UHGV virus genome: UHGV-0038498
DNA: 64,000 nucleotides
Reading direction: 5' to 3' (one strand)
Origin: a virus
The notes under the pieces were generated by a model. It saw nothing but the letters and a program-made list of their open reading frames with translations, was not told where the DNA came from and made no database searches. This document shows, piece after piece, positions 17,482 to 45,231 of the stretch (its first letter is position 1; each line of letters opens with the position of its first letter). A program made the position numbers and the translations under genes.

Positions 17482-17955
17482 ATGTTATTGACTGGCAAAT
17501 TATACAAAGAAGAAAAACAAAAATTTTATAATGCACAAAATGGTAAATGCTTAATTTGCCAACGAGAACTAAATCCTGATGTTCAAGCTAATCACCTTGA
17601 CCATGACCATGAATTAAATGGACCAAAAGCAGGAAAGGTACGTGGATTGCTCTGTAATCTTTGCAATGCAGCGGAAGGTCAAATGAAGCACAAATTTAAT
17701 CGTTCTGGCTTAAAGGGACAAGGCGTTGATTATCTTGAATGGTTGGAAAATTTACTTACTTATTTAAAATCCGATTACACCCAAAATAATATTCACCCTA
17801 ACTTCGTTGGAGATAAATCAAAGGAATTTTCTCGTTTAGGAAAAGAGGAAATGATGGCTGAGATGCTTCAAAGAGGATTTGAATATAATGAATCTGACAC
17901 TAAAACACAATTAATAGCTTCATTTAAGAAGCAGCTTAGAAAGAGTTTAAAATGA
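17482..17955 (+). CDS. 49: endonuclease VII (Holliday junction resolvase)
   Basis: 157 aa, MLLTGKLYKEEKQKF...CNLCNAAEGQ matches T4 gp49; hairpin upstream. Confidence 0.93.
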   Translation: MLLTGKLYKEEKQKFYNAQNGKCLICQRELNPDVQANHLDHDHELNGPKAGKVRGLLCNLCNAAEGQMKHKFNRSGLKGQGVDYLEWLENLLTYLKSDYTQNNIHPNFVGDKSKEFSRLGKEEMMAEMLQRGFEYNESDTKTQLIASFKKQLRKSLK

Positions 17956-19769
17956 CAATTGAAAAAGAAATTGAAGGATTGATTCATAAAACTAATAAAG
18001 ACCTTTTAAACGAGAATGCTAATAAAGATTCTCGTGTTTTTCCAACTCAACGGGACCTTATGGCTGGTATTGTGTCTAAACACATTGCCAAAAATATGGT
18101 CCCGTCTTTTATTATGAAAGCGCATGAAAGCGGAATTATTCATTTCCATGATATTGATTATTCCCCTGCTCTTCCATTTACTAATTGCTGTTTAGTAGAT
18201 TTAAAAGGAATGCTTGAGAACGGATTTAAGCTCGGTAATGCACAGATTGAAACTCCTAAATCAATCGGCGTTGCTACTGCAATTATGGCACAAATTACTG
18301 CACAGGTTGCTTCTCATCAATATGGCGGAACGACTTTTGCGAATGTAGATAAAGTACTTTCTCCTTATGTTAAACGCACCTATGCAAAACATATTGAGGA
18401 TGCAGAAAAATGGCAAATCGCTGATGCGTTGAATTATGCCCAATCTAAAACAGAAAAAGACGTATACGATGCATTCCAAGCTTATGAATATGAAGTAAAT
18501 ACTCTCTTTAGTTCAAACGGACAAACGCCTTTTGTAACAATTACATTTGGTACGGGAACTGACTGGACTGAACGAATGATTCAGAAAGCAATTCTGAAAA
18601 ATCGTATTAAAGGCCTTGGTCGCGATGGGATAACTCCTATTTTCCCTAAACTTGTTATGTTCGTTGAAGAAGGCGTTAATCTTTATAAAGACGATCCGAA
18701 CTATGATATTAAGCAGCTTGCTCTAGAGTGCGCAAGCAAAAGAATGTATCCTGATATTATTTCAGTTAAGAATAATAAAGCTATCACGGGTTCATCTATT
18801 CCTGTTTCTCCAATGGGTTGCCGCAGTTTCTTGAGCGTATGGAAAGATTCGACTGGTAATGAAATTCTTGATGGACGTAATAATCTTGGCGTTGTAACAC
18901 TGAATCTTCCTCGCATTGCGTTAGATTCTTATATTGGAACACAATTCAATGAACAGAAATTTGCCGAATTGTTCAATGAACGAATGGATTTGTGTTTTGA
19001 AGCTTTAATGTGTAGAATTAGTTCCTTAAAAGGAGTTAAAGCGACTGTTGCTCCTATTCTTTACCAAGAAGGTGCATTCGGGGTTCGTCTTAAACCTGAT
19101 GACGACATAATTGAGTTATTTAAAAACGGTAGAAGTTCAGTGTCTTTAGGATACATTGGTATTCACGAATTGAATATTCTTGTCGGTCGTGATATTGGAC
19201 AGGAAATTTTAACTAAAATGAATGCTCGTCTTAAGCAGTGGACTGAAAGAACCGGTTTTGCTTTTAGCTTGTATTCTACACCTGCTGAAAACCTTTGTTA
19301 TCGCTTCTGTAAACTTGATACCGAAAAATATGGAAGTGTAAAGGATGTTACTGATAAAGGCTGGTACACTAACAGTTTCCACGTTTCAGTAGAAGAAAAT
19401 ATTACTCCGTTTGAAAAGATTTCTCGCGAAGCCCCGTATCATTTCATTGCGACAGGTGGTCACATTTCTTATGTTGAACTTCCTGATATGAAAAATAACT
19501 TAAAAGGTCTTGAGGCTGTATGGGATTATGCTGCACAACATTTAGATTATTTTGGTGTTAACATGCCAGTAGATAAATGTTTTACATGCGGAAGTACCCA
19601 TGAAATGACTCCTACTGAAAACGGATTTGTTTGTTCTATTTGTGGAGAAACTGATCCTAAAAAGATGAACACAATAAGAAGAACTTGTGGTTATTTGGGA
19701 AATCCGAACGAACGTGGATTTAATCTTGGCAAAAATAAAGAAATCATGCATAGGGTTAAACACCAATGA
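17952..19769 (+). CDS. nrdD: anaerobic ribonucleotide reductase large subunit
   Basis: 605 aa uninterrupted ORF; glycyl-radical motif RRTCGYLG near C-terminus. Confidence 0.93.
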   Translation: MTIEKEIEGLIHKTNKDLLNENANKDSRVFPTQRDLMAGIVSKHIAKNMVPSFIMKAHESGIIHFHDIDYSPALPFTNCCLVDLKGMLENGFKLGNAQIETPKSIGVATAIMAQITAQVASHQYGGTTFANVDKVLSPYVKRTYAKHIEDAEKWQIADALNYAQSKTEKDVYDAFQAYEYEVNTLFSSNGQTPFVTITFGTGTDWTERMIQKAILKNRIKGLGRDGITPIFPKLVMFVEEGVNLYKDDPNYDIKQLALECASKRMYPDIISVKNNKAITGSSIPVSPMGCRSFLSVWKDSTGNEILDGRNNLGVVTLNLPRIALDSYIGTQFNEQKFAELFNERMDLCFEALMCRISSLKGVKATVAPILYQEGAFGVRLKPDDDIIELFKNGRSSVSLGYIGIHELNILVGRDIGQEILTKMNARLKQWTERTGFAFSLYSTPAENLCYRFCKLDTEKYGSVKDVTDKGWYTNSFHVSVEENITPFEKISREAPYHFIATGGHISYVELPDMKNNLKGLEAVWDYAAQHLDYFGVNMPVDKCFTCGSTHEMTPTENGFVCSICGETDPKKMNTIRRTCGYLGNPNERGFNLGKNKEIMHRVKHQ

Positions 19770-20236
19770 ATTATGATAGATTTTATCCTTGCGATTTTGT
19801 GAATGGCCCTGGATGCAGGGTCGTTCTTTTCGTTACAGGTTGTTTGCATAAATGCGAAGGGTGTTATAATAAATCAACATGGAACGCTAGAAATGGCGTT
19901 CCATTCACTGGTGAAACACTAGAACAATTAATTGAATGTTTGAATAATGATTATATAGAAGGATTAACTATAACTGGAGGAGACCCTCTCTATCCTGATA
20001 ACCGAGATGTTATTCACTCTGTGGTTCAAACAGTAAAAAATCTTTATCCCAATAAAAGCATTTGGTTGTGGACAGGATATAAATTTGAAGATATTAAACA
20101 ACTAGAAATGCTTAAATATGTTGATGTTATTATTGATGGGAAGTATGAGAAAAATCTTCCTACCAAAAAGCTGTGGCGAGGATCAGATAATCAGCGACTT
20201 TGGTCAAATACCGATGGGGTGTGGAAACATGATTAA
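19766..20236 (+). CDS. nrdG: anaerobic RNR activase (radical SAM)
   Basis: 156 aa; CLHKCEGC cluster motif; ATGA overlap with nrdD. Confidence 0.9.
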   Translation: MNYDRFYPCDFVNGPGCRVVLFVTGCLHKCEGCYNKSTWNARNGVPFTGETLEQLIECLNNDYIEGLTITGGDPLYPDNRDVIHSVVQTVKNLYPNKSIWLWTGYKFEDIKQLEMLKYVDVIIDGKYEKNLPTKKLWRGSDNQRLWSNTDGVWKHD

Positions 20237-20351
20237 ATTGAATTATATTATGGACACTATAAATGATATGATTTTTCATTTTGGTCCAGAATTTTATTCG
20301 CAATATAGTTTAGTGCTTATCAATGCTTGGTTAATCAATTAAGGGTAAAAT

Positions 20352-20564
20352 ATGTATAAATTTCGTAAAGGTTTAGCTGATTTTCTTACAACAGTAACAT
20401 TCTTTTTGTTTATGGCAGTTGGAGCTATTTTCCTTATTCCTTTTATTGTTATATTTTTCGTGATTAGTTTGATTTCTCCAGAAAAAGGACTGTCTTCTAG
20501 CGAGTTCAATGAGCGTCTGGATAAAATTACTAATAAGCTGAATGCTGCTCTTAGTAAGGAATAG
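20352..20564 (+). CDS. small membrane protein (70 aa)
   Basis: Long hydrophobic stretch FFLFMAVGAIFLIPFIVIFFVISLI. Confidence 0.5.
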   Translation: MYKFRKGLADFLTTVTFFLFMAVGAIFLIPFIVIFFVISLISPEKGLSSSEFNERLDKITNKLNAALSKE

Positions 20565-37112: not shown

Positions 37113-37853
37113 ATGATTAGTGACTCTATGACAGTTGAAGAAATCCGTCTTCATTTGGGGCTTGCATTAAAGGAAAAAGATTTCGTAGTTGATAAAACTG
37201 GCGTTAAAACTATTGAAATTATTGGCGCATCATTTGTAGCAGATGAACCGTTTATTTTTGGCGCTCTTAATGATGAATACATTCAGCGTGAACTTGAATG
37301 GTATAAATCTAAAAGTTTGTTTGTTAAAGATATTCCAGGTGAAACACCGAAGATTTGGCAACAGGTAGCATCTTCTAAAGGCGAAATTAACTCGAATTAT
37401 GGTTGGGCCATCTGGTCAGAAGATAACTATGCTCAGTATGATATGTGTTTAGCTGAACTTGGTCAAAATCCTGATTCTCGACGCGGTATCATGATTTATA
37501 CTCGTCCATCCATGCAGTTTGACTACAATAAAGATGGTATGTCAGATTTCATGTGTACGAATACAGTACAGTACCTGATTCGTGATAAGAAAGTCAATGC
37601 AGTAGTGAGCATGCGTTCAAATGACGTTGTCTTCGGATTCCGTAATGATTATGCATGGCAAAAATACGTACTAGATAAATTAGTATCTGATTTGAATGCA
37701 GGTGATTCAACTCGTCAGTATAAAGCAGGTTCTATTATATGGAATGTTGGAAGTCTTCATGTATATTCTCGTCATTTTTACTTGGTTGATCATTGGTGGA
37801 ATACTGGCGAAACTCATATTGTGAAAAAAGATTATAATGGTGAGTGGAAATGA
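37113..37853 (+). CDS. 42: dCMP hydroxymethylase
   Basis: 246 aa, same length as T4 gp42. Confidence 0.93.
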   Translation: MISDSMTVEEIRLHLGLALKEKDFVVDKTGVKTIEIIGASFVADEPFIFGALNDEYIQRELEWYKSKSLFVKDIPGETPKIWQQVASSKGEINSNYGWAIWSEDNYAQYDMCLAELGQNPDSRRGIMIYTRPSMQFDYNKDGMSDFMCTNTVQYLIRDKKVNAVVSMRSNDVVFGFRNDYAWQKYVLDKLVSDLNAGDSTRQYKAGSIIWNVGSLHVYSRHFYLVDHWWNTGETHIVKKDYNGEWK

Positions 37854-38692
37854 TTCAATTCGTAATTCCAAGCTATCAACGCGTAGGGGCAGTTTCTGCC
37901 CTTGATATGTTTCCGACTGATTATGAACCTCATATTGTAGTACGTGAACACGAAGAAAAAGCTTATTATGACGCTTACGGGTCTAGAGCTAAAATTATAA
38001 CTATTCCTGATGATGTTAACGGAATTGCTGGTACTCGTAAAGCAATTACTGATATGTATGCAGGTCAACGAATTTGGATGATTGATGATGATACTACTAT
38101 TCGTATGAGTTCAATGCGAAAGAAAGATGATCGTCGCTGCGTAGATAAAATTAATCAGTTAACTCGTGAACAGTTCTATGAATTGATTCAATACGTTGAA
38201 GATGCCATGGATTGCGGGTATTATCATGGTCATGCTCGTCTGCCTATTTTTAAAATTACTTCATCTTGGGGTAATTATCGTGAAAATTCATATGGATTTA
38301 CGAATACCTGGTATGACCTCGGAAAACTTACAACAGAACAAATTGGGTATGGAAAAATTGATTTATGCGAAGATATGTATGCATTTCTCAATTTAATTAA
38401 TCAAGGTTATCCGCATTTGGCCTTGTTCAAATATCTGGTTGTATCTGGAAAAGCGCAAGCTCCTGGCGGATGTAGTTCAATTCGTAGTAATTCAAAACAT
38501 AATAGAGCTCTTGAGCAAATCAATAGAGAGTTTCCAGAGCAAGCTCGTTGGAAAACATCGAATATTGAAAAGAGAAAATCGTTGGGTGAAGAAGACGAGC
38601 CATTAAAGGTTCTTCGTATGTGTGTTTCGCGCAAAGAAAAATCAGAAGCGTTTCATAAGTTTAATGCTATTCATCCAATAGCAGTTGATTAA
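37850..38692 (+). CDS. putative DNA-modifying glycosyltransferase (not T4-type beta-gt)
   Basis: 280 aa at the bgt locus; DxD-like IWMIDDDTTI; no resemblance to T4 beta-gt N-terminus as recalled. Confidence 0.6.
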   Translation: MIQFVIPSYQRVGAVSALDMFPTDYEPHIVVREHEEKAYYDAYGSRAKIITIPDDVNGIAGTRKAITDMYAGQRIWMIDDDTTIRMSSMRKKDDRRCVDKINQLTREQFYELIQYVEDAMDCGYYHGHARLPIFKITSSWGNYRENSYGFTNTWYDLGKLTTEQIGYGKIDLCEDMYAFLNLINQGYPHLALFKYLVVSGKAQAPGGCSSIRSNSKHNRALEQINREFPEQARWKTSNIEKRKSLGEEDEPLKVLRMCVSRKEKSEAFHKFNAIHPIAVD

Positions 38693-38769: not shown

Positions 38770-39951
38770 ATGTCTATTGCAGATTTAAAATCCCGTTTGA
38801 TTAAAGCTTCCACTTCTAAAATGACTGCTGAACTGACTACATCTAAATTCTTTAATGAAAAGGATGTAATCCGTACAAAAATCCCAATGCTTAATATCGC
38901 TATTTCTGGTGCGATTGATGGTGGTATGCAGTCTGGTTTAACCATTTTTGCAGGTCCTTCTAAACACTTTAAATCAAATATGTCTTTGACTATGGTTGCG
39001 GCGTATTTGAACAAATATCCTGACGCGGTATGTCTATTTTATGATAGCGAATTTGGTATTACTCCAGCTTATTTGCGATCCATGGGAGTTGACCCGGAAC
39101 GAGTAATTCATACACCAATTCAGTCAGTTGAACAGCTGAAAATTGATATGGTGAATCAGCTTGAAGCTATTGAGCGTGGTGAAAAAGTTATTGTATTCAT
39201 CGACTCAATCGGTAATATGGCTTCTAAGAAAGAAACGGAAGATGCCTTGAATGAAAAATCTGTGGCAGATATGACTCGTGCTAAATCACTGAAGTCATTA
39301 TTCCGTATTGTTACTCCTTATTTTAGTATTAAAAACATTCCATGCGTTGCGGTTAACCATACAATTGAAACAATTGAAATGTTTAGTAAAACCGTGATGA
39401 CAGGTGGTACAGGCGTAATGTATTCGGCTGATACCGTATTCATTATCGGTAAGCGCCAGATTAAAGATGGTTCTGATCTTCAGGGGTATCAATTTGTTCT
39501 AAATGTAGAAAAATCTCGTACCGTCAAAGAAAAAAGTAAATTCTTTATTGATGTTAAATTTGACGGTGGTATCGATCCTTATTCTGGATTGTTAGATATG
39601 GCTCTTGAATTAGGATTTGTGGTAAAACCTAAAAATGGCTGGTATGCTCGTGAATTTCTTGATGAAGAAACCGGCGAGATGATTCGCGAAGAAAAATCTT
39701 GGCGTGCAAAAGATACCAACTGCACTACATTCTGGGGTCCTTTATTTAAGCATCAACCATTCCGAGATGCTATTAAACGTGCTTATCAGTTAGGTGCTAT
39801 TGATAGTAATGAAATTGTTGAAGCTGAAGTTGATGAATTGATTAACTCAAAGGTTGAAAAATTTAAATCTCCAGAAAGTAAAAGTAAATCAGCAGCTGAT
39901 TTAGAAACTGACCTAGATCAGTTAAGTGATATGGAAGAATTTAATGAATAA
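38770..39951 (+). CDS. uvsX: RecA-like recombinase UvsX
   Basis: 393 aa; Walker A GPSKHFKS; near-identical to T4 UvsX as recalled. Confidence 0.95.
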   Translation: MSIADLKSRLIKASTSKMTAELTTSKFFNEKDVIRTKIPMLNIAISGAIDGGMQSGLTIFAGPSKHFKSNMSLTMVAAYLNKYPDAVCLFYDSEFGITPAYLRSMGVDPERVIHTPIQSVEQLKIDMVNQLEAIERGEKVIVFIDSIGNMASKKETEDALNEKSVADMTRAKSLKSLFRIVTPYFSIKNIPCVAVNHTIETIEMFSKTVMTGGTGVMYSADTVFIIGKRQIKDGSDLQGYQFVLNVEKSRTVKEKSKFFIDVKFDGGIDPYSGLLDMALELGFVVKPKNGWYAREFLDEETGEMIREEKSWRAKDTNCTTFWGPLFKHQPFRDAIKRAYQLGAIDSNEIVEAEVDELINSKVEKFKSPESKSKSAADLETDLDQLSDMEEFNE

Positions 39952-40288
39952 AGATGATTTAGATTTAGATCTAGAAATTATCGATGAATCCCCCTCTTCG
40001 GAGGGGGAAGAAGAAAGAAAAGAACGTCTTTTTAATGAATCTCTTAAGATAATTAAATCTGCCATGGAAAATGTTATCCAGGAGATTGTCATTAAACTAG
40101 AAGACGGTTCTACACACATTGTGTATGTGACAAAATTAGATTGGGTTGATGGAAAAGTCGTAATGGACTTTGCTGTTCTTGACCAAGAAAGAAAAGCTGA
40201 GTTAGCTCCTCATGTAGAAAAATGTATTACAATGCAACTACAAGATGCATTTAATAAAAGGTCAAAGAAAAAATTTAAATTCTTTTAA
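39944..40288 (+). CDS. 40: head vertex assembly chaperone gp40
   Basis: About 114 aa from ATG 39944; synteny uvsX-40-41; contains internal GC hairpin. Confidence 0.7.
   Translation: MNKDDLDLDLEIIDESPSSEGEEERKERLFNESLKIIKSAMENVIQEIVIKLEDGSTHIVYVTKLDWVDGKVVMDFAVLDQERKAELAPHVEKCITMQLQDAFNKRSKKKFKFF
39990..40007 (+). other. GC-rich UUCG-tetraloop hairpin inside gene 40 coding sequence
   Basis: CCCCCTC-TTCG-GAGGGGG, 7-bp G/C stem in AT-rich context, no U-run. Confidence 0.5.
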
Positions 40289-40297
40289 GGAGTAAGT

Positions 40298-41725
40298 GTG
40301 GTAGAAATTATTCTTTCTCATCTCATATTTGATCAAGCTTATTTTTCAAAAGTTTGGCCATATATGGATTCAGAATATTTTGAAAGTGGTCCAGCTAAAA
40401 ATACATTCAAATTAATTAAATCTCATGTTAATGAATACCATAGCGTTCCATCTATTAATGCGTTAAATGTTGCGCTAGAAAATAGTTCATTTACTGAAAC
40501 AGAATATTCTGGTGTAAAAACACTTATTTCGAAACTAGCCGATTCTCCAGAAGACCACAGCTGGTTAGTAAAAGAAACAGAAAAATATGTTCAGCAAAGG
40601 GCGATGTTTAATGCTACGTCTAAAATAATTGAAATTCAAACCAATGCTGAGCTTCCTCCGGAAAAACGAAATAAGAAAATGCCGGATGTTGGTGCTATTC
40701 CTGACATCATGCGCCAAGCATTATCAATTTCATTTGATAGTTATGTTGGTCATGATTGGATGGATGACTACGAAGCACGTTGGCTATCTTATATGAATAA
40801 AGCTCGTAAGGTTCCATTTAAACTCAAAATTCTAAATAAAATTACTAAAGGCGGAGCTGAAACTGGAACACTGAACGTTTTAATGGCCGGTGTTAACGTT
40901 GGTAAGTCATTAGGTCTGTGTTCATTAGCAGCAGATTATTTGCAGCTCGGACATAATGTTCTTTACATTTCCATGGAAATGGCAGAAGAAGTCTGTGCTA
41001 AGCGTATTGATGCTAATATGCTTGATGTTTCTCTCGATGACATTGATGACGGGCATATTTCTTACGCTGAGTATAAAGGAAAAATGGAAAAATGGCGTGA
41101 GAAATCTACTCTCGGTCGTTTAATCGTTAAACAGTATCCTACTGGTGGAGCAGACGCTAATACATTTCGATCTCTTTTAAACGAATTAAAGCTCAAGAAG
41201 AATTTTGTTCCAACAATCATTATTGTTGACTATCTGGGTATTTGTAAATCTTGCCGCATCAGAGTTTATTCAGAAAATAGTTACACAACTGTTAAAGCCA
41301 TCGCAGAAGAATTGCGTGCTCTTGCTGTTGAAACCGAAACTGTTCTTTGGACTGCAGCGCAGGTTGGTAAGCAAGCTTGGGATTCTTCTGATGTTAACAT
41401 GAGCGATATTGCAGAATCTGCCGGTCTTCCAGCAACAGCCGATTTTATGCTTGCGGTCATTGAAACCGAGGAGTTAGCAGCTGCTGAACAACAACTAATT
41501 AAGCAAATCAAATCACGATATGGTGATAAGAATAAATGGAATAAGTTTTTGATGGGTGTTCAAAAAGGAAATCAGAAATGGGTAGAAATTGAGCAAGATT
41601 CTACTCCAACCGAAGTGAACGAAGTAGCAGGTTCACAGCAGATTCAGGCTGAACAGAATCGTTATCAAAGAAACGAATCCGCTCGAGCTCAGTTAGATGC
41701 TTTGGCAAATGAATTAAAATTTTAG
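40298..41725 (+). CDS. 41: replicative DNA helicase gp41 (DnaB-like)
   Basis: 475 aa, MVEIILSHLIFDQAYFSKVWPYMD matches T4 gp41; Walker A GVNVGKS; GTG start. Confidence 0.95.
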   Translation: MVEIILSHLIFDQAYFSKVWPYMDSEYFESGPAKNTFKLIKSHVNEYHSVPSINALNVALENSSFTETEYSGVKTLISKLADSPEDHSWLVKETEKYVQQRAMFNATSKIIEIQTNAELPPEKRNKKMPDVGAIPDIMRQALSISFDSYVGHDWMDDYEARWLSYMNKARKVPFKLKILNKITKGGAETGTLNVLMAGVNVGKSLGLCSLAADYLQLGHNVLYISMEMAEEVCAKRIDANMLDVSLDDIDDGHISYAEYKGKMEKWREKSTLGRLIVKQYPTGGADANTFRSLLNELKLKKNFVPTIIIVDYLGICKSCRIRVYSENSYTTVKAIAEELRALAVETETVLWTAAQVGKQAWDSSDVNMSDIAESAGLPATADFMLAVIETEELAAAEQQLIKQIKSRYGDKNKWNKFLMGVQKGNQKWVEIEQDSTPTEVNEVAGSQQIQAEQNRYQRNESARAQLDALANELKF

Positions 41726-41758
41726 TTTACAAGCCGACAAGACTATGGTATAGTAGTC
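41720..41758 (+). promoter_or_regulatory. T4-type early promoter with palindrome around -10
   Basis: GTTTACAAG; AAGACTA-tggtatag-TAGTCTT inverted repeat. Confidence 0.55.
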
Positions 41759-41783
41759 TTGTTGGTTAAATGAGGAGATTGTT

Positions 41784-41966
41784 ATGGAATTGGTAAAGGT
41801 AGTTTTTATGGGGTGGTTTAAGAACGAAAGCATGTTTACTAAAGAAATCACAATGATGAAAGATGACGTTCAATGGACTACTAATCAATATGCTGAAGTT
41901 AATAAAGCACTAGTTAAAGCTTTCATTGATGACAAGAAAGTATGCGAAGTGGATTGCCGAGGATAA
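41784..41966 (+). CDS. dmd: Dmd-like antitoxin (inhibitor of RnlA/LsoA), T4 61.5 position
   Basis: 60 aa, first gene after 41 with own early promoter; assignment from recalled T4 order. Confidence 0.6.
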   Translation: MELVKVVFMGWFKNESMFTKEITMMKDDVQWTTNQYAEVNKALVKAFIDDKKVCEVDCRG

Positions 41967-41967
41967 T

Positions 41968-42225
41968 ATGCATATTGTTTTATTTAAACCTACACCGTAT
42001 AACGTCAGGAAAAACACTCAATTCAAAGCACTTATCGCAGATACGTGGGAATTGGTATTAGATATTCCGGCAGAAGAAAGTCCTCCATTTGGTCGAGTGG
42101 AATTTATTAAGTTTGCTGTGCGCCCTACGAAGCGACAGATTCGCCAATGCAAAAGATACTTTCGTAAAATCGTCAAGTTAGAGAAACAGTTTGTAACATG
42201 TGATTATGCAGAAGTTTTAAAATAG
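41968..42225 (+). CDS. hypothetical protein (85 aa), 61.4 position
   Basis: ATG overlapping dmd stop; basic C-terminus. Confidence 0.5.
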   Translation: MHIVLFKPTPYNVRKNTQFKALIADTWELVLDIPAEESPPFGRVEFIKFAVRPTKRQIRQCKRYFRKIVKLEKQFVTCDYAEVLK

Positions 42226-42262
42226 CTGTTTACTTTTATTGGAAATTGAGATACTATATAAA
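42222..42262 (+). promoter_or_regulatory. T4-type early promoter
   Basis: GTTTAC ... GATACTATA. Confidence 0.5.
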
Positions 42263-42285
42263 CATAAATTACTGAGGAGATTATC

Positions 42286-42579
42286 ATGAAAAAATTTATC
42301 TTTGCTACAATTTTTGCTTTATCTTCTTGTGCTGCTCAGCCTGCTATGGCGGGTTATGACAAAGATTTGTGTGAATGGTCTATGACTGCAGATCAGACTG
42401 AAGTTGAAACTCAAATTGAAGCAGATATTATGAATATTGTTGAGCGTGACCGTCCTGAAATGAAAGCTGAAGTACAAAAACAGCTTAAGTCTGGTGGTGT
42501 AATGCAGTATAATTATGTTCTGTATTGCGATAAAAACTTTAATAATAAAAATATCATCGCTGAAGTGGTAGGTGAATAA
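42286..42579 (+). CDS. sp: Spackle-like periplasmic protein (T4 sp/61.3)
   Basis: 97 aa with cleavable signal peptide; own early promoter. Confidence 0.6.
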   Translation: MKKFIFATIFALSSCAAQPAMAGYDKDLCEWSMTADQTEVETQIEADIMNIVERDRPEMKAEVQKQLKSGGVMQYNYVLYCDKNFNNKNIIAEVVGE

Positions 42580-43205
42580 TGCTCTATCAAATGCACAAGT
42601 GCAAAGATACATACAAATATAAAGGTGCTCAGTGTTATATCATTAATCGTGAAAACGCGGGTCCAGGTCATTCGCATCAATCACGGTTTGTATTCGTTAA
42701 AAACAATGAAATTATAGCAGTTGCTAATTACATGCTTGTGACTAATGACGTTAATCCGGTGCCTTTTACATATTATAATCTAATGGATTTGGCGTACGAT
42801 TATAATTGGTTTAATCATGATACTTTGGCTCATATTGAAGGCGTAGGATTTGACATCTCTTATTCTAGTTACTCGTTGTGTCCTATGAGCAGAGCTCATA
42901 AAGAGCCTGAATATTTTTCATTTCGTCGGCGTGTAGATTTTGAACGCAGCACAGAGTATGTCGGTGGAATCTTTGTTAAAGATAATCGAATTACTCGCAT
43001 TATTTATCCTTTGGGCTGTGGTCAAAAAGATATTGATGTTGATTTAGACTTTACTGAAAACATCATTAATCATATTGCTTCTGTGTATTTTGATATTGAT
43101 CACAAAATTGTAATATGTGGATATGAATTACCGTCAGAAAAACAGTCTAAAGTAGATGTTTCTATTGATGACCAAATTTTTAATGCTTTTATGAATAGAG
43201 GTTAA
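42579..43205 (+). CDS. hypothetical protein (208 aa), 61.2/AdfA-like position
   Basis: ORF track; synteny only. Confidence 0.5.
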   Translation: MLYQMHKCKDTYKYKGAQCYIINRENAGPGHSHQSRFVFVKNNEIIAVANYMLVTNDVNPVPFTYYNLMDLAYDYNWFNHDTLAHIEGVGFDISYSSYSLCPMSRAHKEPEYFSFRRRVDFERSTEYVGGIFVKDNRITRIIYPLGCGQKDIDVDLDFTENIINHIASVYFDIDHKIVICGYELPSEKQSKVDVSIDDQIFNAFMNRG

Positions 43206-43206
43206 T

Positions 43207-43371
43207 ATGAAAACGTTTAAAGAATTTATTAAAGAAGATATGGTAGCTGGAGATTCAGGTGGTAATCCTGAAAATATCTCTACTGGAACAACGTCAGGCG
43301 CTGTAGTAAATAAAGGTCCTGAGCAGATTCCTAAAAAGAAAAAAGAGGAATCTAAAGAAAAAGAAGAGTAA
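43207..43371 (+). CDS. hypothetical Lys/Glu-rich protein (54 aa)
   Basis: Hand-translated; immediately upstream of primase. Confidence 0.4.
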   Translation: MKTFKEFIKEDMVAGDSGGNPENISTGTTSGAVVNKGPEQIPKKKKEESKEKEE

Positions 43372-43373
43372 AA

Positions 43374-44402
43374 ATGCCATCAATACCTTGGATTGATAAT
43401 GAGTTTGCATACCGTGCATTAGCTCATTTACCTAAATTCGCACAAGTAAATAATAGTTCAACTTTTAAATTACGGTTTAGATGCCCTGTTTGTGGAGATT
43501 CAAAAACCGACCAAAATAAAGCCCGTGGATGGTATTATGGCGATAATAATGAAGGAAATATTCATTGTTATAACTGTAACTATCATGCACCAATCGGAAT
43601 ATATTTAAAGGAGTTTGAACCTGATTTATATCGTGAGTATATCTTTGAAATAAGAAAAGAAAAAGGTAAAAGTCGTCCAATAGAAAAACCTAAAGAACTT
43701 CCTAAACAACCTGAGAAGAAAATAATTAAATCTCTTCCGTCATGCATTAGATTAGATAAACTGGCGGAAGACCATCCAATTATAAAATATGTAAAAGCTC
43801 GTTGTATTCCAAAGGATAAATGGAAATATCTTTGGTTTACAACCGAATGGCCTAAATTAGTTAATAGTATAGCGCCAGGAACATATAAAAAGGAAATACC
43901 TGAGCCTCGTCTTGTTATTCCAATTTATAATGCTAACGGAAAAGCTGAGTCTTTTCAAGGACGTGCATTAAAGAAAGATGCTCCTCAAAAATATATCACC
44001 ATCAAAGCTTATCCTGAGGCAACAAAAATTTATGGAGTTGAACGAGTCAAAGATGGTGATGTATATGTTCTAGAAGGACCTATAGATTCACTTTTTATTG
44101 AAAATGGTATAGCTATTACGGGCGGTCAATTAGACCTAGAAATTGTTCCATTTAAAGATAGACGTGTGTGGGTTTTAGATAATGAACCTCGTCACCCTGA
44201 CACTATTAAACGAATGACTAAATTGGTTGATGCAGGAGAAAGGGTTATGTTTTGGGACAAATCTCCCTGGAAATCAAAGGATGTTAATGATATGATTAGA
44301 AAGGAAGGTGCAACCCCTGAACAAATTATGGAATATATGAAAAATAATATTGCCCAAGGGTTGATGGCTAAAATGCGGCTATCTAAATATGCTAAGATTT
44401 AA
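43374..44402 (+). CDS. 61: DNA primase gp61
   Basis: 342 aa; Zn-ribbon CPVCGDS..CYNCNYH and TOPRIM-like core. Confidence 0.93.
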   Translation: MPSIPWIDNEFAYRALAHLPKFAQVNNSSTFKLRFRCPVCGDSKTDQNKARGWYYGDNNEGNIHCYNCNYHAPIGIYLKEFEPDLYREYIFEIRKEKGKSRPIEKPKELPKQPEKKIIKSLPSCIRLDKLAEDHPIIKYVKARCIPKDKWKYLWFTTEWPKLVNSIAPGTYKKEIPEPRLVIPIYNANGKAESFQGRALKKDAPQKYITIKAYPEATKIYGVERVKDGDVYVLEGPIDSLFIENGIAITGGQLDLEIVPFKDRRVWVLDNEPRHPDTIKRMTKLVDAGERVMFWDKSPWKSKDVNDMIRKEGATPEQIMEYMKNNIAQGLMAKMRLSKYAKI

Positions 44403-44599
44403 ATTAACCCAACTAAAGCAAATGCTAAATCTACGAATGTATCAAGAGTAATTACCGGAATATTAACACCATGAGCGATAGCAATTGGCGATAAAATAAA
44501 GTTCCAGAGTAAAATTCCTACCATAGCAGAAATAGTAAAAGCTATACGTTTTTTATTACCTTTTATGGCATTAACAAGTGCCATTAATTTTTGTACCAT
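44399..44599 (-). CDS. small two-TM membrane protein, antisense (66 aa)
   Basis: Minus-strand ORF with AAGGAGGA 7 nt before ATG; convergent with gene 61. Confidence 0.55.
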   Translation of the reverse strand: MVQKLMALVNAIKGNKKRIAFTISAMVGILLWNFILSPIAIAHGVNIPVITLDTFVDLAFALVGLI

Positions 44600-44670
44600 A
44601 TATCCTCCTTATTGCTTTATATATTTATTGTATAATTAATCTACTAACCCATGAATTGAAAGGAAAAATA

Positions 44671-45189
44671 ATGGCATACTTTAATGAATGTTCACAACTG
44701 ATCGAAGGCGCTGATAAAGCTCAAAATGAATACTGGGATATTCTCGGTGATGAAAAAGACCCGCTGCAGGTTATGCTTGATATGCAGAAATCTCTGCAGG
44801 TTCGTTTAGCTAAAGATAAACCTGAATATAACCGTCATCCTGATGATTTGGCTACTGCAGGCGAAGTTGTTGATTGGCTGCGTAATCAGAAAGATTATAT
44901 TGATGATGAATTCCGCGAACTACTGACTTCTCTTGGTGGTATGAGCAATGGCGAAAAAGATGCATCTGCTGTATGGAAGCCATGGAAAGCTCAACATGGT
45001 GAACGTCGTGAAACTCTGATTACTGATTTGTCTCCACAAGACCAGTTGGAAATTAAATTCGAAATGATTGATATTCTTCATTTCGTTCTGAACATGTTCC
45101 AAGGTCTCGGTCTTACAGCTGAAGAAATCTTTAAACTTTATTATCTAAAAAATGCCGAAAACTTCGCTCGTCAAGACCGAGGTTATTAA
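44671..45189 (+). CDS. 56: dCTPase/dUTPase gp56 (MazG-like)
   Basis: 172 aa from ATG 44671; length and position match T4 gp56. Confidence 0.88.
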   Translation: MAYFNECSQLIEGADKAQNEYWDILGDEKDPLQVMLDMQKSLQVRLAKDKPEYNRHPDDLATAGEVVDWLRNQKDYIDDEFRELLTSLGGMSNGEKDASAVWKPWKAQHGERRETLITDLSPQDQLEIKFEMIDILHFVLNMFQGLGLTAEEIFKLYYLKNAENFARQDRGY

Positions 45190-45223
45190 TATAAACGACA
45201 GCTTAAAAGCTGTGAGAATTTAT

Positions 45224-45231
45224 TATAAATA
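45224..45231 (+). promoter_or_regulatory. late promoter TATAAATA (soc)
   Basis: Exact TATAAATA about 30 nt upstream of soc. Confidence 0.7.

Follow-up and report, generated by a model that had tools for sequence, protein, structure and literature searches.

A Tequatrovirus counterpart of the T4 dmd-61.1 block, with four probable anti-defense or exclusion genes and a possible prohead-targeted peptide

Introduction

In bacteriophage T4, the region between the genes for the replicative helicase (41) and the primase (61) has been published as an "anti-TA island" (Srikant et al. 2022, PMC9391042), and four of its five genes have published functions. Dmd is an antitoxin-like inhibitor of the HEPN RNase toxins RnlA and LsoA (PMC8266594, PMC3014915). 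The product of 61.4, renamed TifA, is a protein inhibitor of the ToxN endoribonuclease in which a central cluster of positively charged residues has been described (PMC9391042). Spackle inhibits the gp5 tail lysozyme, which it contacts through Ser32, Met33, Thr34, Ala35, Gln37, and Asn76 (PMC7677548). AdfA (gp61.2) is the anti-DarT factor A, and residue 164 of the RB69 protein was found to be decisive for the neutralization of DarT1; a T4 mutant deleted for adfA showed no phenotype on DarTG1, even in the absence of adfN (PMC11257639; a further source on AdfA function is PMC9391042). Other genes of the region were flagged as anti-toxin candidates (Srikant et al., PMC9391042).

All five T4 genes are early at the RNA level and four are early at the protein level (PMC9697503 supplement). 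The fifth, gp61.1, has an early RNA but went undetected in the same time-course proteome (PMC9697503 supplement), a nondetection that says little because digestion with trypsin should leave a peptide of some 34 residues. We found no published function for gp61.1, whose name we met in the literature only as an entry in gene tables, and we found no virion proteome that mentions it.

Here, we analyze the corresponding interval in a 64,000-nucleotide stretch of the virus genome UHGV-0038498 (the window). An original prediction, made from the letters alone, had placed five small early genes there and had named them by position and length.

Results

All five genes were found on the + strand of the interval 41784-43371, where they had been predicted (Table 1). 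The order, lengths, and spacing of dmd-61.4-sp-61.2-61.1 are those of T4 18966-20553, and alignment to the T4 and RB69 proteins, the check proposed with the prediction, gave 96-99% identity to T4 per protein, upholding the relatedness of the open reading frames to their namesakes. Because dN/dS against T4 is 0.02-0.14 in each of the five, we regard them as real genes; each is preceded by a GAGG-type ribosome-binding site or by a stop/start overlap, as read from the sequence. Four gave full-length Pfam matches far exceeding the gathering cut-offs. In nucleotide comparison, the nearest record for the interval was Shigella phage ESh26 (98.3% DNA identity), and 330 phage records covered at least 80% of it. 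The source phage is, by its sequence, a Tequatrovirus, and we conclude with high confidence that the T4 dmd-61.1 block has its Tequatrovirus ortholog here; the proposal made below for gp61.1 is held far less firmly.

Table 1. Features of the 41-61 interval and its flanks (window positions)
Feature	Position	Strand	Details
Gene 41, replicative helicase (upstream flank)	40298..41725	+	475 aa; 473/475 identical to T4 gp41
Early promoter of the dmd-tifA operon	41726..41754	+	TTTACA, 17 nt, TG, TATAGT
15-bp hairpin	41732..41767	+	Directly after the gene 41 stop codon; overlaps the -10 element of the dmd promoter
dmd (61.5)	41784..41966	+	60 aa; PF17587
tifA (61.4)	41968..42225	+	85 aa counted from ATG; PF23945
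Putative second early promoter, for sp-adfA-61.1(-61)	42228..42257	+	GTTTAC 42228-42233, TACTAT 42252-42257; read from sequence
sp (spackle)	42286..42579	+	97 aa; PF25676
adfA (61.2)	42579..43205	+	208 aa; PF23813
61.1	43207..43371	+	54 aa; 53/54 identical to T4 gp61.1
Gene 61, primase (downstream flank)	43374..44402	+	342 aa; 336/342 identical to T4 gp61

The interval reads as two tightly packed early transcription units, the promoter of the second being putative. The first encodes Dmd and TifA. Its promoter matches the consensus at 10 of 12 positions and has an extended TG, a strong match in the promoter scan; the 41-dmd intergenic region is the same as that of T4 at 56 of 58 nt, and the T4 counterpart is the early promoter that drives dmd-tifA (PMC9391042). 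The second unit encodes Spackle, AdfA, and gp61.1, and its transcription probably continues into the primase gene. Two early promoters had been predicted, and for this one the case is weaker: it matches the sigma-70 consensus at only 8 of 12 positions, under the scan threshold, though the 61.4-sp intergenic region is the same as T4 at 58 of 60 nt, and we infer its activity. Since the whole scan returned 9 promoter-like sites against 9.2 expected from shuffled sequence, both calls rest on T4 conservation and the literature and not on statistics. A search for the late promoter motif TATAAATA found none in 41700-43400. The hairpin that overlaps the first promoter folds as RNA at -21.8 kcal/mol (z = -5.85; equaled by 0 of 200 shuffles), and the T4 sequence differs on both arms while keeping the stem; no U-tract follows it, and the terminator scan was empty.

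The 60-aa protein predicted to be Dmd-like is Dmd. It matches PF17587 (E 7.6e-45; 151.5 bits against a cut-off of 27) with residues 1-60 on profile positions 1-60, and PDB 5HY3 chain B, "Antitoxin Dmd" (E 4e-36); 58 of 60 residues are identical to T4 Dmd, the differences being A32T and T34N. The gene is the first past helicase 41, behind the early promoter and in one operon with 61.4, whose start codon lies 1 nt past the dmd stop. By analogy with its T4 ortholog, Dmd would bind RnlA and LsoA, standing in for their unstable antitoxins. The 85-aa basic protein proved to be TifA, which matches PF23945 (DUF7279; E 2.3e-20; 72.7 bits against a cut-off of 24.5) and differs from T4 gp61.4 only by I83V (84/85 identical). 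Its length is counted from the ATG, the frame in the mechanical list of open reading frames reaching back to a TTG at 41926. RB69 shares the basic block KFAVRPTKRQIRQ unchanged, and the central positive-charge cluster KFAVRPTKRQIRQCKRYFRK is identical to T4. The 15-residue C-terminal extension of the T2/T4/T6 type is present, in contrast to RB69 TifA, which lacks these residues and is 57% identical. TifA, a small basic protein, would associate with the ToxN RNase of type III ToxIN systems and neutralize it.

Similarly, the 97-aa signal-peptide protein, predicted to be Spackle-like, is Spackle, with matches to PF25676 (E 6.8e-45; 152 bits against a cut-off of 27) and to the PDB entries 6X6O (E 2e-61), 6XC0, and 7CN6. 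It is identical to T4 Sp at 95 of 97 residues, with A13S in the signal peptide and K53E as the differences. After the signal peptide MKKFIFATIFALSSCAAQPAMA comes the mature part (PDB 7CN6 begins at residue 23), in which all six lysozyme-contact residues and the Cys29/Cys81 pair are kept. Once exported to the periplasm, Spackle would clamp the gp5 tail spike of an incoming phage by its lysozyme domain, and superinfection would thereby be blocked.

The 208-aa protein at the 61.2 position, whose ATG overlaps the sp stop codon (TAATG), is AdfA. Residues 1-208 align to positions 1-211 of PF23813 (E 1.6e-135; 449.6 bits against a cut-off of 27), and 200 of 208 residues (96%) are identical to T4. AdfA would bind the DarT1 DNA ADP-ribosyltransferase. 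The RB69 protein is 70% identical and carries Arg164, the non-neutralizing state (NINRIAS); the aligned residue in the window is His165 (IINHIAS), the DarT1-neutralizing state of RB69 residue 164, and 13 of 16 family members have His there. Against this stands the possibility that the window AdfA, like that of T4, fails to neutralize the DarT1 under study; its target would then be another DarT homolog, if it has one. We take this alternative seriously while leaning against it. In its favor, the T4 deletion has no DarTG1 phenotype even when adfN is lacking, which suggests that the natural target may be another DarT, the authors propose a part for differences at positions other than 164 (PMC11257639), and the window protein is close to that of T4. 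It sits less well with His at the decisive position and with the other residues at which the two proteins part: the window has Pro62, Tyr66, Thr82, Ala84, and Cys147 where T4 has Leu, Asp, Asn, Val, and Phe. Pro62 and Tyr66 are the near-invariant consensus, from which the T4 reference is the sole outlier in the family, and the other three are common. The inactivity of T4 AdfA may therefore be peculiar to the T4 reference sequence, and its departure at Pro62/Tyr66 offers a concrete, testable reason for the absent phenotype.

The last of the five, predicted as a 54-aa Lys/Glu-rich protein at the end of the block, is gp61.1 by its identity to T4, and the label fits only its last 12 or so residues. 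What the original prediction missed is that gp61.1 differs in kind from its neighbors, both in its wider conservation and in its relation to a capsid N-terminal segment. It belongs to phrog_1823 and also corresponds to the C-terminal part of phrog_2086. The family is carried by about 1,400 phage records (Escherichia, Klebsiella, Acinetobacter, Aeromonas, Serratia, and Vibrio phages) as against about 490 for AdfA; gp61.1 appears to be a truncated member of a Straboviridae-wide family, far more widely conserved than its neighbors. In every genome examined (T4, RB69, RB49, Acj9, AS-sw, Serratia 92A1, and KVP40-like), the gene falls within the stretch from helicase 41 to primase 61, usually with 61 as the next gene. 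Intact forms of about 150-165 aa in distant phages give way to a split form in RB69, where a frameshift divides the long form into ORF032c and a 92-aa open reading frame, and then to the last 54 aa in T4 and the window. The short forms share 20 invariant columns among 12 sequences, all homologs carry a basic tail behind the core, and dN/dS against T4 is 0.05, a value drawn from 6 differences only. No Pfam family was matched by the short, RB69, or T6-type forms even at E <= 10, and the long forms were likewise without a match. AlphaFold2 modeled one long form as a helical N-domain, predicted with confidence, and a capsid-like tail that is disordered. Foldseek found nothing in the PDB and only uncharacterized relatives in BFVD, so neither search pointed to a function of the N-domain. 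Some BFVD matches are proteins of 387-913 aa that contain the module, and the homolog search topped out at about 250 aa.

[quoted passage not shown] With hhalign, its core matched gp23 residues 58-100 at probabilities of 94.4% (E 9e-8) and 95.4% (E 2e-8) for two different alignments. This stretch comprises the end of the propeptide, the LTE65 cleavage site, and the N-arm/N-fist; it has 45% identity to the long-form profile of gp61.1, and the two share the cleavage-site Glu and the pattern G-D-x-G...N-I-A-x-G-x-T-S-G-A...G-P. Residues 66-105 of gp23 are flexible, face inward, and are believed to contact the scaffold (PMC9546572). Across 11 gp61.1 homologs and gp23, the Glu of the (L/I)xE site does not vary, and in almost all of 21 diverse long forms, a hydrophobic-x-Glu motif stands ahead of the core. 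Motifs of the (L/I)xE type are common by chance, and the similarity spans some 40 residues, rich in Gly, Ser, Thr, and Ala. When the short-form profile was searched against 1.84 billion representative proteins, it retrieved 51 family members, 50-251 aa in length, but not one full-length capsid protein, so the similarity to gp23 is significant pairwise and at the profile level but not at database scale. The homology appears not to extend beyond gp23 58-100, which takes in the cleavage site with the end of the propeptide before it and the N-arm after it.

Three other identities for gp61.1 were considered and set aside. As the major capsid protein Gp23 (PF07068), it has no Pfam match at E <= 10 and is only 54 aa long; the Pfam model begins at gp23 residue 88. 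Annotations of Tequatrovirus records vary and are partly wrong, several naming 61.1 and one more gene of the interval "major capsid protein," and for 61.1, the label is wrong as a functional name. The GDSGG sequence recalls the active-site motif of chymotrypsin-type serine proteases; the 54-aa protein has no catalytic His/Asp, and homologs read GDAGG, GDHGG, or GDSGY. Mimicry of the Gol peptide (Lit/EF-Tu exclusion) is unsupported as the gp23 alignment stops near residue 100. The Gol core of gp23 presumably begins at about that point and lies after it.

The N-terminal leader of gp61.1, MKTFKEFIKE, is identical at 7 of 10 positions to MKTYQEFIAE, the capsid-targeting sequence (CTS) that leads the T4 internal proteins IPII/IPIII, and it was the sole fit among 860 Met-initiated frames in the window, the next best reaching 4/10. 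Its F4, F7, I8, and E10 fall at the four positions experimentally shown to govern CTS targeting (4 and 7) and processing (8 and 10). The likeness to T4 IPII and IPIII comprises an aromatic residue 4, Phe7, Ile8, and Glu10, and T6-type homologs read MKTYKEFIKE. The layout is then a CTS-like leader, a predicted gp21 site after Glu10, a gp23 N-arm-like segment at residues 11-42, and a Lys/Glu tail.

Discussion

The interval studied here lies in a region whose role in T4 is already in the literature, and the prediction that anti-toxin and anti-defense factors map to it agrees with published work (PMC9391042, PMC11257639). The inhibitors that it would supply are Dmd, TifA, Spackle, and AdfA with the His allele; their functions are read across from 96-99% identity to proteins tested in T4 or RB69. 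The value of the block lies in correct annotation, as many public records say "hypothetical" or, wrongly, "major capsid protein," and the published anti-defense and exclusion functions of four of the genes help host range prediction.

For gp61.1, we tentatively propose, at less than even odds, that it is not a classical anti-toxin but a prohead-targeted peptide cut by gp21. It may be what truncation has left of a protein, about 150 aa long and present across Straboviridae, whose conserved C-terminal segment is homologous to gp23 58-100 and would correspond to the maturation cleavage site and the N-arm contacting the scaffolding core. The internal proteins IPI-III, like 61.1, fall in the "early RNA" class in T4. 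Through its internal-protein-like leader, gp61.1 would be recruited into the prohead core, where the gp21 protease would cut after Glu10; the uncleaved junction reads MKTFKEFIKE-DMVAGDSGG, and the predicted 44-residue product begins DMVAGDSGGNPENIS. This peptide would join head assembly or be carried in the head. The fullest form of the proposal, which we consider doubtful enough to be offered chiefly as a hypothesis, is that gp61.1 is the smallest form of a hitherto uninterpreted Straboviridae family that supplies a free-standing copy of the gp23 maturation site and N-arm, led into the prohead, in T4-type phages, by a CTS and cut there by gp21 after Glu10. The N-arm-like peptide would then compete with or complement gp23 N-arms at scaffold/capsomer contacts and affect head length or stability; alternatively, as a very small internal peptide, it would enter the next host along with the DNA.

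A rather unlikely alternative, in our judgment, is that gp61.1 acts in the cytoplasm as an early anti-defense factor. Synthesized ahead of gp23 as an unattached version of its conserved N-arm and never entering the head, it would serve as a decoy or blocker of a host immune sensor or protease that recognizes the capsid N-terminal region. The company it keeps speaks for this, since its early operon also holds AdfA and Spackle and belongs to a documented anti-TA island whose other genes are anti-toxin candidates (Srikant et al., PMC9391042), its T4 RNA is early with no late promoter in the interval, and the sensing of capsids by bacterial immunity is established, for example by Gol/Lit on gp23. 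However, the distribution of the family is wider than accessory anti-defense genes usually have, and the conserved Glu/cleavage motif and the CTS-like leader would be left unexplained. The fixed place between helicase and primase in every genome examined, together with a basic tail that could bind nucleic acid, would suit an accessory replication or primase-helicase factor in which the resemblance to gp23 and the CTS is convergent or functionally irrelevant. We think this improbable: no similarity to a replication protein came from Pfam, with short and long forms, or from Foldseek against the PDB, and the gp23 similarity spans the cleavage site itself and was reproduced with two independent alignments. 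The 54-aa form could also be a decaying remnant of the long form with no function of its own, as the clear truncation series and the protein's absence from T4 proteomics would allow, but we hold this to be very unlikely given that the short form keeps its start codon, its ribosome-binding site, and a tight core in many genera, and that dN/dS is low, though from few differences. If the prohead-targeting proposal is true, gp61.1 would add a component to the T4 prohead, an assembly system that ranks among those studied best in any virus. Few T4 genes that lack an assigned function are conserved as widely as 61.1, and the hypothesis now attached to it, which concerns head assembly and gp21 processing, is specific and can be falsified.

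Compared with known systems, the block is closest to its relatives in Tequatrovirus. ESh26 and other isolates of the genus (EC121, vB_EcoM_112, SHFML-26, and others) have 97-98.3% DNA identity across the interval and the same gene content, with point differences only. The T4 block (NC_000866 18966-20553) agrees with it in its five genes and in their order, lengths, and overlaps, as well as in the two intergenic promoter regions, each of which differs from that of the window at only two positions; there are 14 amino-acid substitutions in total, the most notable ones in AdfA. The flanks also differ in content: within the part of T4 compared (1-25000), the window is without dam, segF, and segA and carries a glucosyltransferase of the T2/T6 type. 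In the Mosigvirus RB69, dmd, tifA, sp, adfA, and 61.1 follow in the same order from helicase to primase, but the extra genes imm, imm.1, ORF033, ORF040, and ORF041 are inserted. With respect to the two structural systems that gp61.1 resembles, it differs from T4 gp23 in having no HK97-fold body and a Lys-rich tail in place of the gp23 continuation. It differs from IPII and IPIII in its mature part, which is unrelated to theirs and would be a peptide of only 44 residues, and in its locus, which has no late promoter nearby; its packaging is a proposal.

The gene block between helicase 41 and primase 61

The original prediction placed five small early genes between helicase 41 and primase 61, coding for a Dmd-like protein, a basic protein, a Spackle-like protein, a protein in the 61.2 position, and a short final product, and the ORF list contains all five, on the plus strand. 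Direct reading of the sequence revealed GAGG-type ribosome-binding sites upstream of dmd, 61.4, sp, and 61.1. The genes are tightly packed: a single nucleotide separates the dmd stop from the 61.4 start and the 61.2 stop from the 61.1 start, and the sp stop and the 61.2 start overlap as TAATG.

Features of the gene 41-61 interval and its surroundings (coordinates of the window)
Feature	Coordinates	Strand	Description	Source
glucosyltransferase gene	37844-38692	+	282 aa	
uvsX	38770-39951			
helicase 41	40298-41725		475 aa; flanks the block	
promoter site before dmd	41726-41754			
hairpin	41732-41767		15 bp	
dmd	41784-41966	+	60 aa	ORF list
tifA (61.4)	41968-42225	+	85 aa, counted from ATG	ORF list
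sp	42286-42579	+	97 aa	ORF list
adfA (61.2)	42579-43205	+	208 aa	ORF list
61.1	43207-43371	+	54 aa	ORF list
primase 61	43374-44402		342 aa; flanks the block	
small hydrophobic ORF	44399-44599	-	66 aa	
dam junction	44610-44631		T4 counterpart, 16825-17725	
gene 56 region	44631-45224		dCTPase	

The same five genes, with equal lengths and spacing, are found at 18966-20553 in T4 (NC_000866). The plus strand of the window corresponds to the minus strand of T4, and 38782-44610 is colinear, as a single block, with T4 23555-17725 at 94% identity. A megablast search with 41600-43500 matched 540 phage records, and in 330 of these the match spans 80% or more of the query. They consist almost entirely of Tequatrovirus isolates from Escherichia, Shigella, Yersinia, and Salmonella, and the closest is Shigella phage ESh26 (98.3% identity).

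Full-length Pfam matches, all far beyond the curated cut-offs, identified Dmd (PF17587, E = 7.6e-45), TifA (DUF7279, PF23945, E = 2.3e-20), Spackle (T4_Spackle, PF25676, E = 6.8e-45), and AdfA (PF23813, E = 1.6e-135), and PHROGs concurred. Among solved structures, Dmd matched 5HY3 chain B ("Antitoxin Dmd") and Spackle matched 6X6O, 6XC0, and 7CN6 ("Protein spackle"). Global alignment to the T4 products supported the assignments made from position and length, none of the five ORFs being unrelated to its T4 counterpart (Dmd, 58/60 identical; TifA, 84/85; Spackle, 95/97; AdfA, 200/208; gp61.1, 53/54). With dN/dS values against T4 of 0.14 (dmd), 0.02 (61.4), 0.04 (sp), 0.07 (61.2), and 0.05 (61.1), all five are genes under purifying selection rather than chance ORFs.

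Promoters and hairpin

Two early promoters had also been predicted. The site before dmd (TTTACA, 17 nt, TG, TATAGT) is the top match of the region and is conserved with T4, from which the intergenic region differs at 2 of 58 positions; one promoter upstream of dmd is reported to serve both dmd and tifA (PMC9391042). The putative site before sp (GTTTAC at 42228, TACTAT at 42252) is a weak 8/12 match that the scan did not list, and what speaks for it is conservation, the intergenic region being identical to T4 at 58 of 60 positions. Sites in the promoter scan were no more numerous than expected from shuffled sequence, so both calls are grounded in conservation and published work. The search for intrinsic terminators found none. 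A T4 time course classes dmd, 61.4, sp, and 61.2 as early by RNA and by protein alike (PMC9697503).

Directly 3' of the gene 41 stop codon lies a hairpin (-21.8 kcal/mol, z = -5.9) whose loop and 3' arm contain the dmd -10 hexamer. T4 differs by one base in each arm, and the stem is kept. This hairpin may be a 3'-end stabilizer of the uvsX-40-41 transcript or a structure coupling upstream transcription to promoter use.

Dmd, TifA, Spackle, and the AdfA allele

By orthology, the functions described in the literature for Dmd, TifA, Spackle, and AdfA would extend to the window proteins. Dmd is a direct inhibitor of two toxins, the HEPN RNase RnlA of RnlAB and its plasmid homolog LsoA, and docks in the groove that separates the HEPN domain from the second TBP-like domain; when T4 lacks Dmd, middle and late mRNAs are destroyed (PMC8266594, PMC3014915). 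Gene 61.4 was renamed tifA after T4 gained toxIN resistance by amplifying the dmd-tifA segment; the TifA protein, not the RNA, rescues from ToxN and co-immunoprecipitates with it, and native expression suffices against chromosomal toxIN but not against plasmid toxIN (PMC9391042). The predicted basic protein is this TifA, which differs from that of T4 only by I83V and, like it, retains the central basic cluster and a C-terminal extension that RB69 lacks. Spackle binds and inhibits the lysozyme domain of the gp5 tail spike, the basis of superinfection exclusion (PMC7677548). All the contact residues named in that study (Ser32, Met33, Thr34, Ala35, Gln37, and Asn76) are kept in the window, as is the Cys29/Cys81 pair; relative to T4 the protein has two substitutions, K53E and, within the signal peptide, A13S.

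For AdfA, wild-type RB69 protein with Arg164 does not bind DarT1, the escape variant R164H does, and most T-even relatives naturally carry His at this position (PMC11257639). His165 of the window aligns with RB69 residue 164, making the window protein a neutralizing-type allele; among 16 aligned AdfA sequences, the equivalent residue is His in 13, Arg in RB69 and one relative, and Asn in one. Deleting adfA leaves the DarTG1 resistance of T4 unchanged, even when adfN is missing as well, and differences outside residue 164 were suspected by the same authors of weakening T4 AdfA (PMC11257639). Four of the eight differences between the window and T4 (positions 62, 66, 82, and 84) agree with RB69. 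In the 16-sequence alignment, conservation reaches at least 90% at both Pro62 and Tyr66, and the T4 reference alone has Leu62 and Asp66; positions 62 and 66 are obvious candidates for the suspected weakness of T4 AdfA. Because it keeps Pro62 and Tyr66 where T4 deviates, the window AdfA may be the better DarT1 binder.

Distribution and architecture of gp61.1

In PHROGs, gp61.1 falls into phrog_1823 and also matches the C-terminal end of phrog_2086 (156 positions). By tblastn it occurs in approximately 1,400 phage records, against approximately 490 for AdfA, with hosts including Klebsiella, Acinetobacter, Aeromonas, Enterobacter, Serratia, and Erwinia. All four distant genomes examined have the gene between 41 and 61, and a 159-aa "gp61.1" is listed between helicase and primase in a KVP40-like vibriophage. 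In Acj9, AS-sw, and Serratia 92A1 the protein has 149-163 aa with the T4-like part at the C terminus; T4 and the window retain only the last 54 residues of this long form. In RB69 (L003 2318-2784, minus strand), a frameshift after "...PSTPEEK" splits the long form into ORF032c (63 aa) and gp61.1 (92 aa), either a nascent pseudogene or a sequencing or annotation artifact of the reference. Metagenomic family members such as P0036, P0051, and P0053 carry an extra conserved C-terminal domain of approximately 100 aa after a basic linker (...FKQFVEGLEADK...SVVVEA...GKTT...LVWK), and BFVD holds proteins of 387-913 aa that include the gp61.1 module; such fusion partners might hint at the function of the family. 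The mentions of gp61.1 found in the literature were gene-table entries, with no functional study among them.

Many GenBank and UniRef entries call gp61.1 homologs "major capsid protein" or "major capsid domain-containing protein"; some records give a second interval gene the same name, and one entry is called "methyltransferase". [quoted passage not shown] Residues 2-38 align by BLASTP without gaps to T4 gp23 57-93 (pairwise E = 4e-9, with 17/37 residues identical). A profile built from 11 members of the family matched gp23 58-100 (94.4% probability, E = 9e-8), and a second, independently aligned from 21 diverse long forms without T4-type sequences, matched gp23 62-101 (95.4%, E = 2e-8, 45% identity). 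Certain members are nearer to gp23 than is gp61.1 of T4, for example P0045 (ILE-AEVIGDSGYDAENIASGVTSGDVVSAGAQTM, against LTE-AEIGGDHGYNATNIAAGQTSGAVTQIGPAVM in gp23). The Pfam Gp23 model starts at residue 88, so the similarity is not reported as a domain hit. When the short-form profile was run against 1.84 billion representative proteins, its hits were 51 members of the family, with no full-length capsid protein among them; the gp23 link is therefore supported pairwise and by profile, over about 40 residues, and not at database scale.

The alignment spans the gp23 maturation site, where the prohead protease gp21 cuts after LTE65 and removes residues 1-65 (PMC9546572). The cleavage-site Glu is invariant in 11/11 gp61.1 homologs and gp23, and almost all of the 21 long forms have a hydrophobic-x-Glu motif ahead of the core. 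Before the head expands, residues 66-105 of gp23* are a disordered segment that points inward and probably touches the gp22 scaffolding core; in the expanded head this segment forms the external N-arm and N-fist, which make capsomer-capsomer contacts and part of the Soc binding site, and the head-length mutations A66D, A94V, and G97S map to it (PMC9546572). AlphaFold2 predicted for one long form a helical N-domain (residues 11-70, pLDDT 87-98), for which Foldseek gave no structural relative in the PDB and only uncharacterized ones in BFVD, and an unstructured capsid-like tail (pLDDT ~50-60), a model consistent with a tail that folds only on a partner.

The leader of gp61.1, MKTFKEFIKE (MKTYKEFIKE in close homologs), resembles the start MKTYQEFIAE shared by the T4 internal proteins IPIII and IPII. 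According to the summary in PMC9026906 of work by Mullaney and Black, the first ten residues of this capsid-targeting sequence (CTS) suffice for packaging, residues 4 and 7 serving targeting and 8 and 10 processing by gp21; gp61.1 has Phe4, Phe7, Ile8, and Glu10 at these positions. A control scan covered the 860 Met-initiated frames in the window that have 30 codons or more; gp61.1 alone fits the strict or loose CTS pattern, sharing 7/10 residues with the CTS against at most 4/10 for any other frame.

Possible roles of gp61.1

The most economical reading, which we put forward tentatively, is that gp61.1 is a head-maturation substrate: leader and N-arm-like segment would draw it into the prohead core, where gp21 would cut after Glu10 to leave a 44-residue peptide. 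The interval has no late promoter, which counts against a prohead role, and no proteomic evidence for one was found; in the T4 time course the protein is undetected and 61.1 RNA is early (PMC9697503). Early transcription is no contradiction, since ipI, ipII, and ipIII are also classed as "early RNA" in that data set. The capsid-like segment could instead make gp61.1 an early cytoplasmic decoy for capsid-sensing immunity, which we consider somewhat unlikely. Its fixed location beside primase speaks for a replication accessory factor, a role we find rather improbable, and a remnant without function seems to us very unlikely.

Neighboring regions and relation to T4

The window carries a beta-glucosyl-HMC-alpha-glucosyltransferase of the T2/T6 type (phrog_842, E = 2e-89) between gene 42 (dCMP hydroxymethylase) and uvsX, whereas the T4 genes at this place, beta-glucosyltransferase and the homing endonuclease segA, have no blastn match in the window. 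The phage DNA is therefore likely to be glucosylated in the T2/T6 manner, a point that bears on its sensitivity to type IV restriction. UvsX is 90% identical to its T4 counterpart at the protein level, with substitutions concentrated in the N-terminal two-thirds, and the adjacent gp41 is 99.6% identical, which looks like a recombination mosaic boundary within or near uvsX.

Downstream, the small hydrophobic ORF runs toward primase 61 in convergent orientation, with a 4-nt overlap at the primase stop codon. T4 has an intact copy (17738-17938, 63/66 identical), although the RefSeq record does not annotate it. The ORF shows 52% identity to RB69ORF029w and falls into phrog_2024 (unknown function); it is probably a genuine gene for a small membrane protein that annotation has missed. 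T4 dam (DNA adenine methyltransferase) is absent: between gene 56 and the region that follows primase 61, approximately 20 bp take the place of approximately 900 bp of T4, an arrangement shared with ESh26. Gene 56 has 77% DNA identity to T4, against approximately 94-95% in its neighbors; segF, a homing endonuclease located between gene 56 and soc in T4, is absent, and a canonical late promoter (TATAAATA) lies at 45224, immediately upstream of soc.

The block is the anti-TA island of T4 in a close T4 relative, an interval already known; what is new is a specific, testable hypothesis for gp61.1 and the classification of the AdfA allele, with T4 as the outlier at Pro62/Tyr66.
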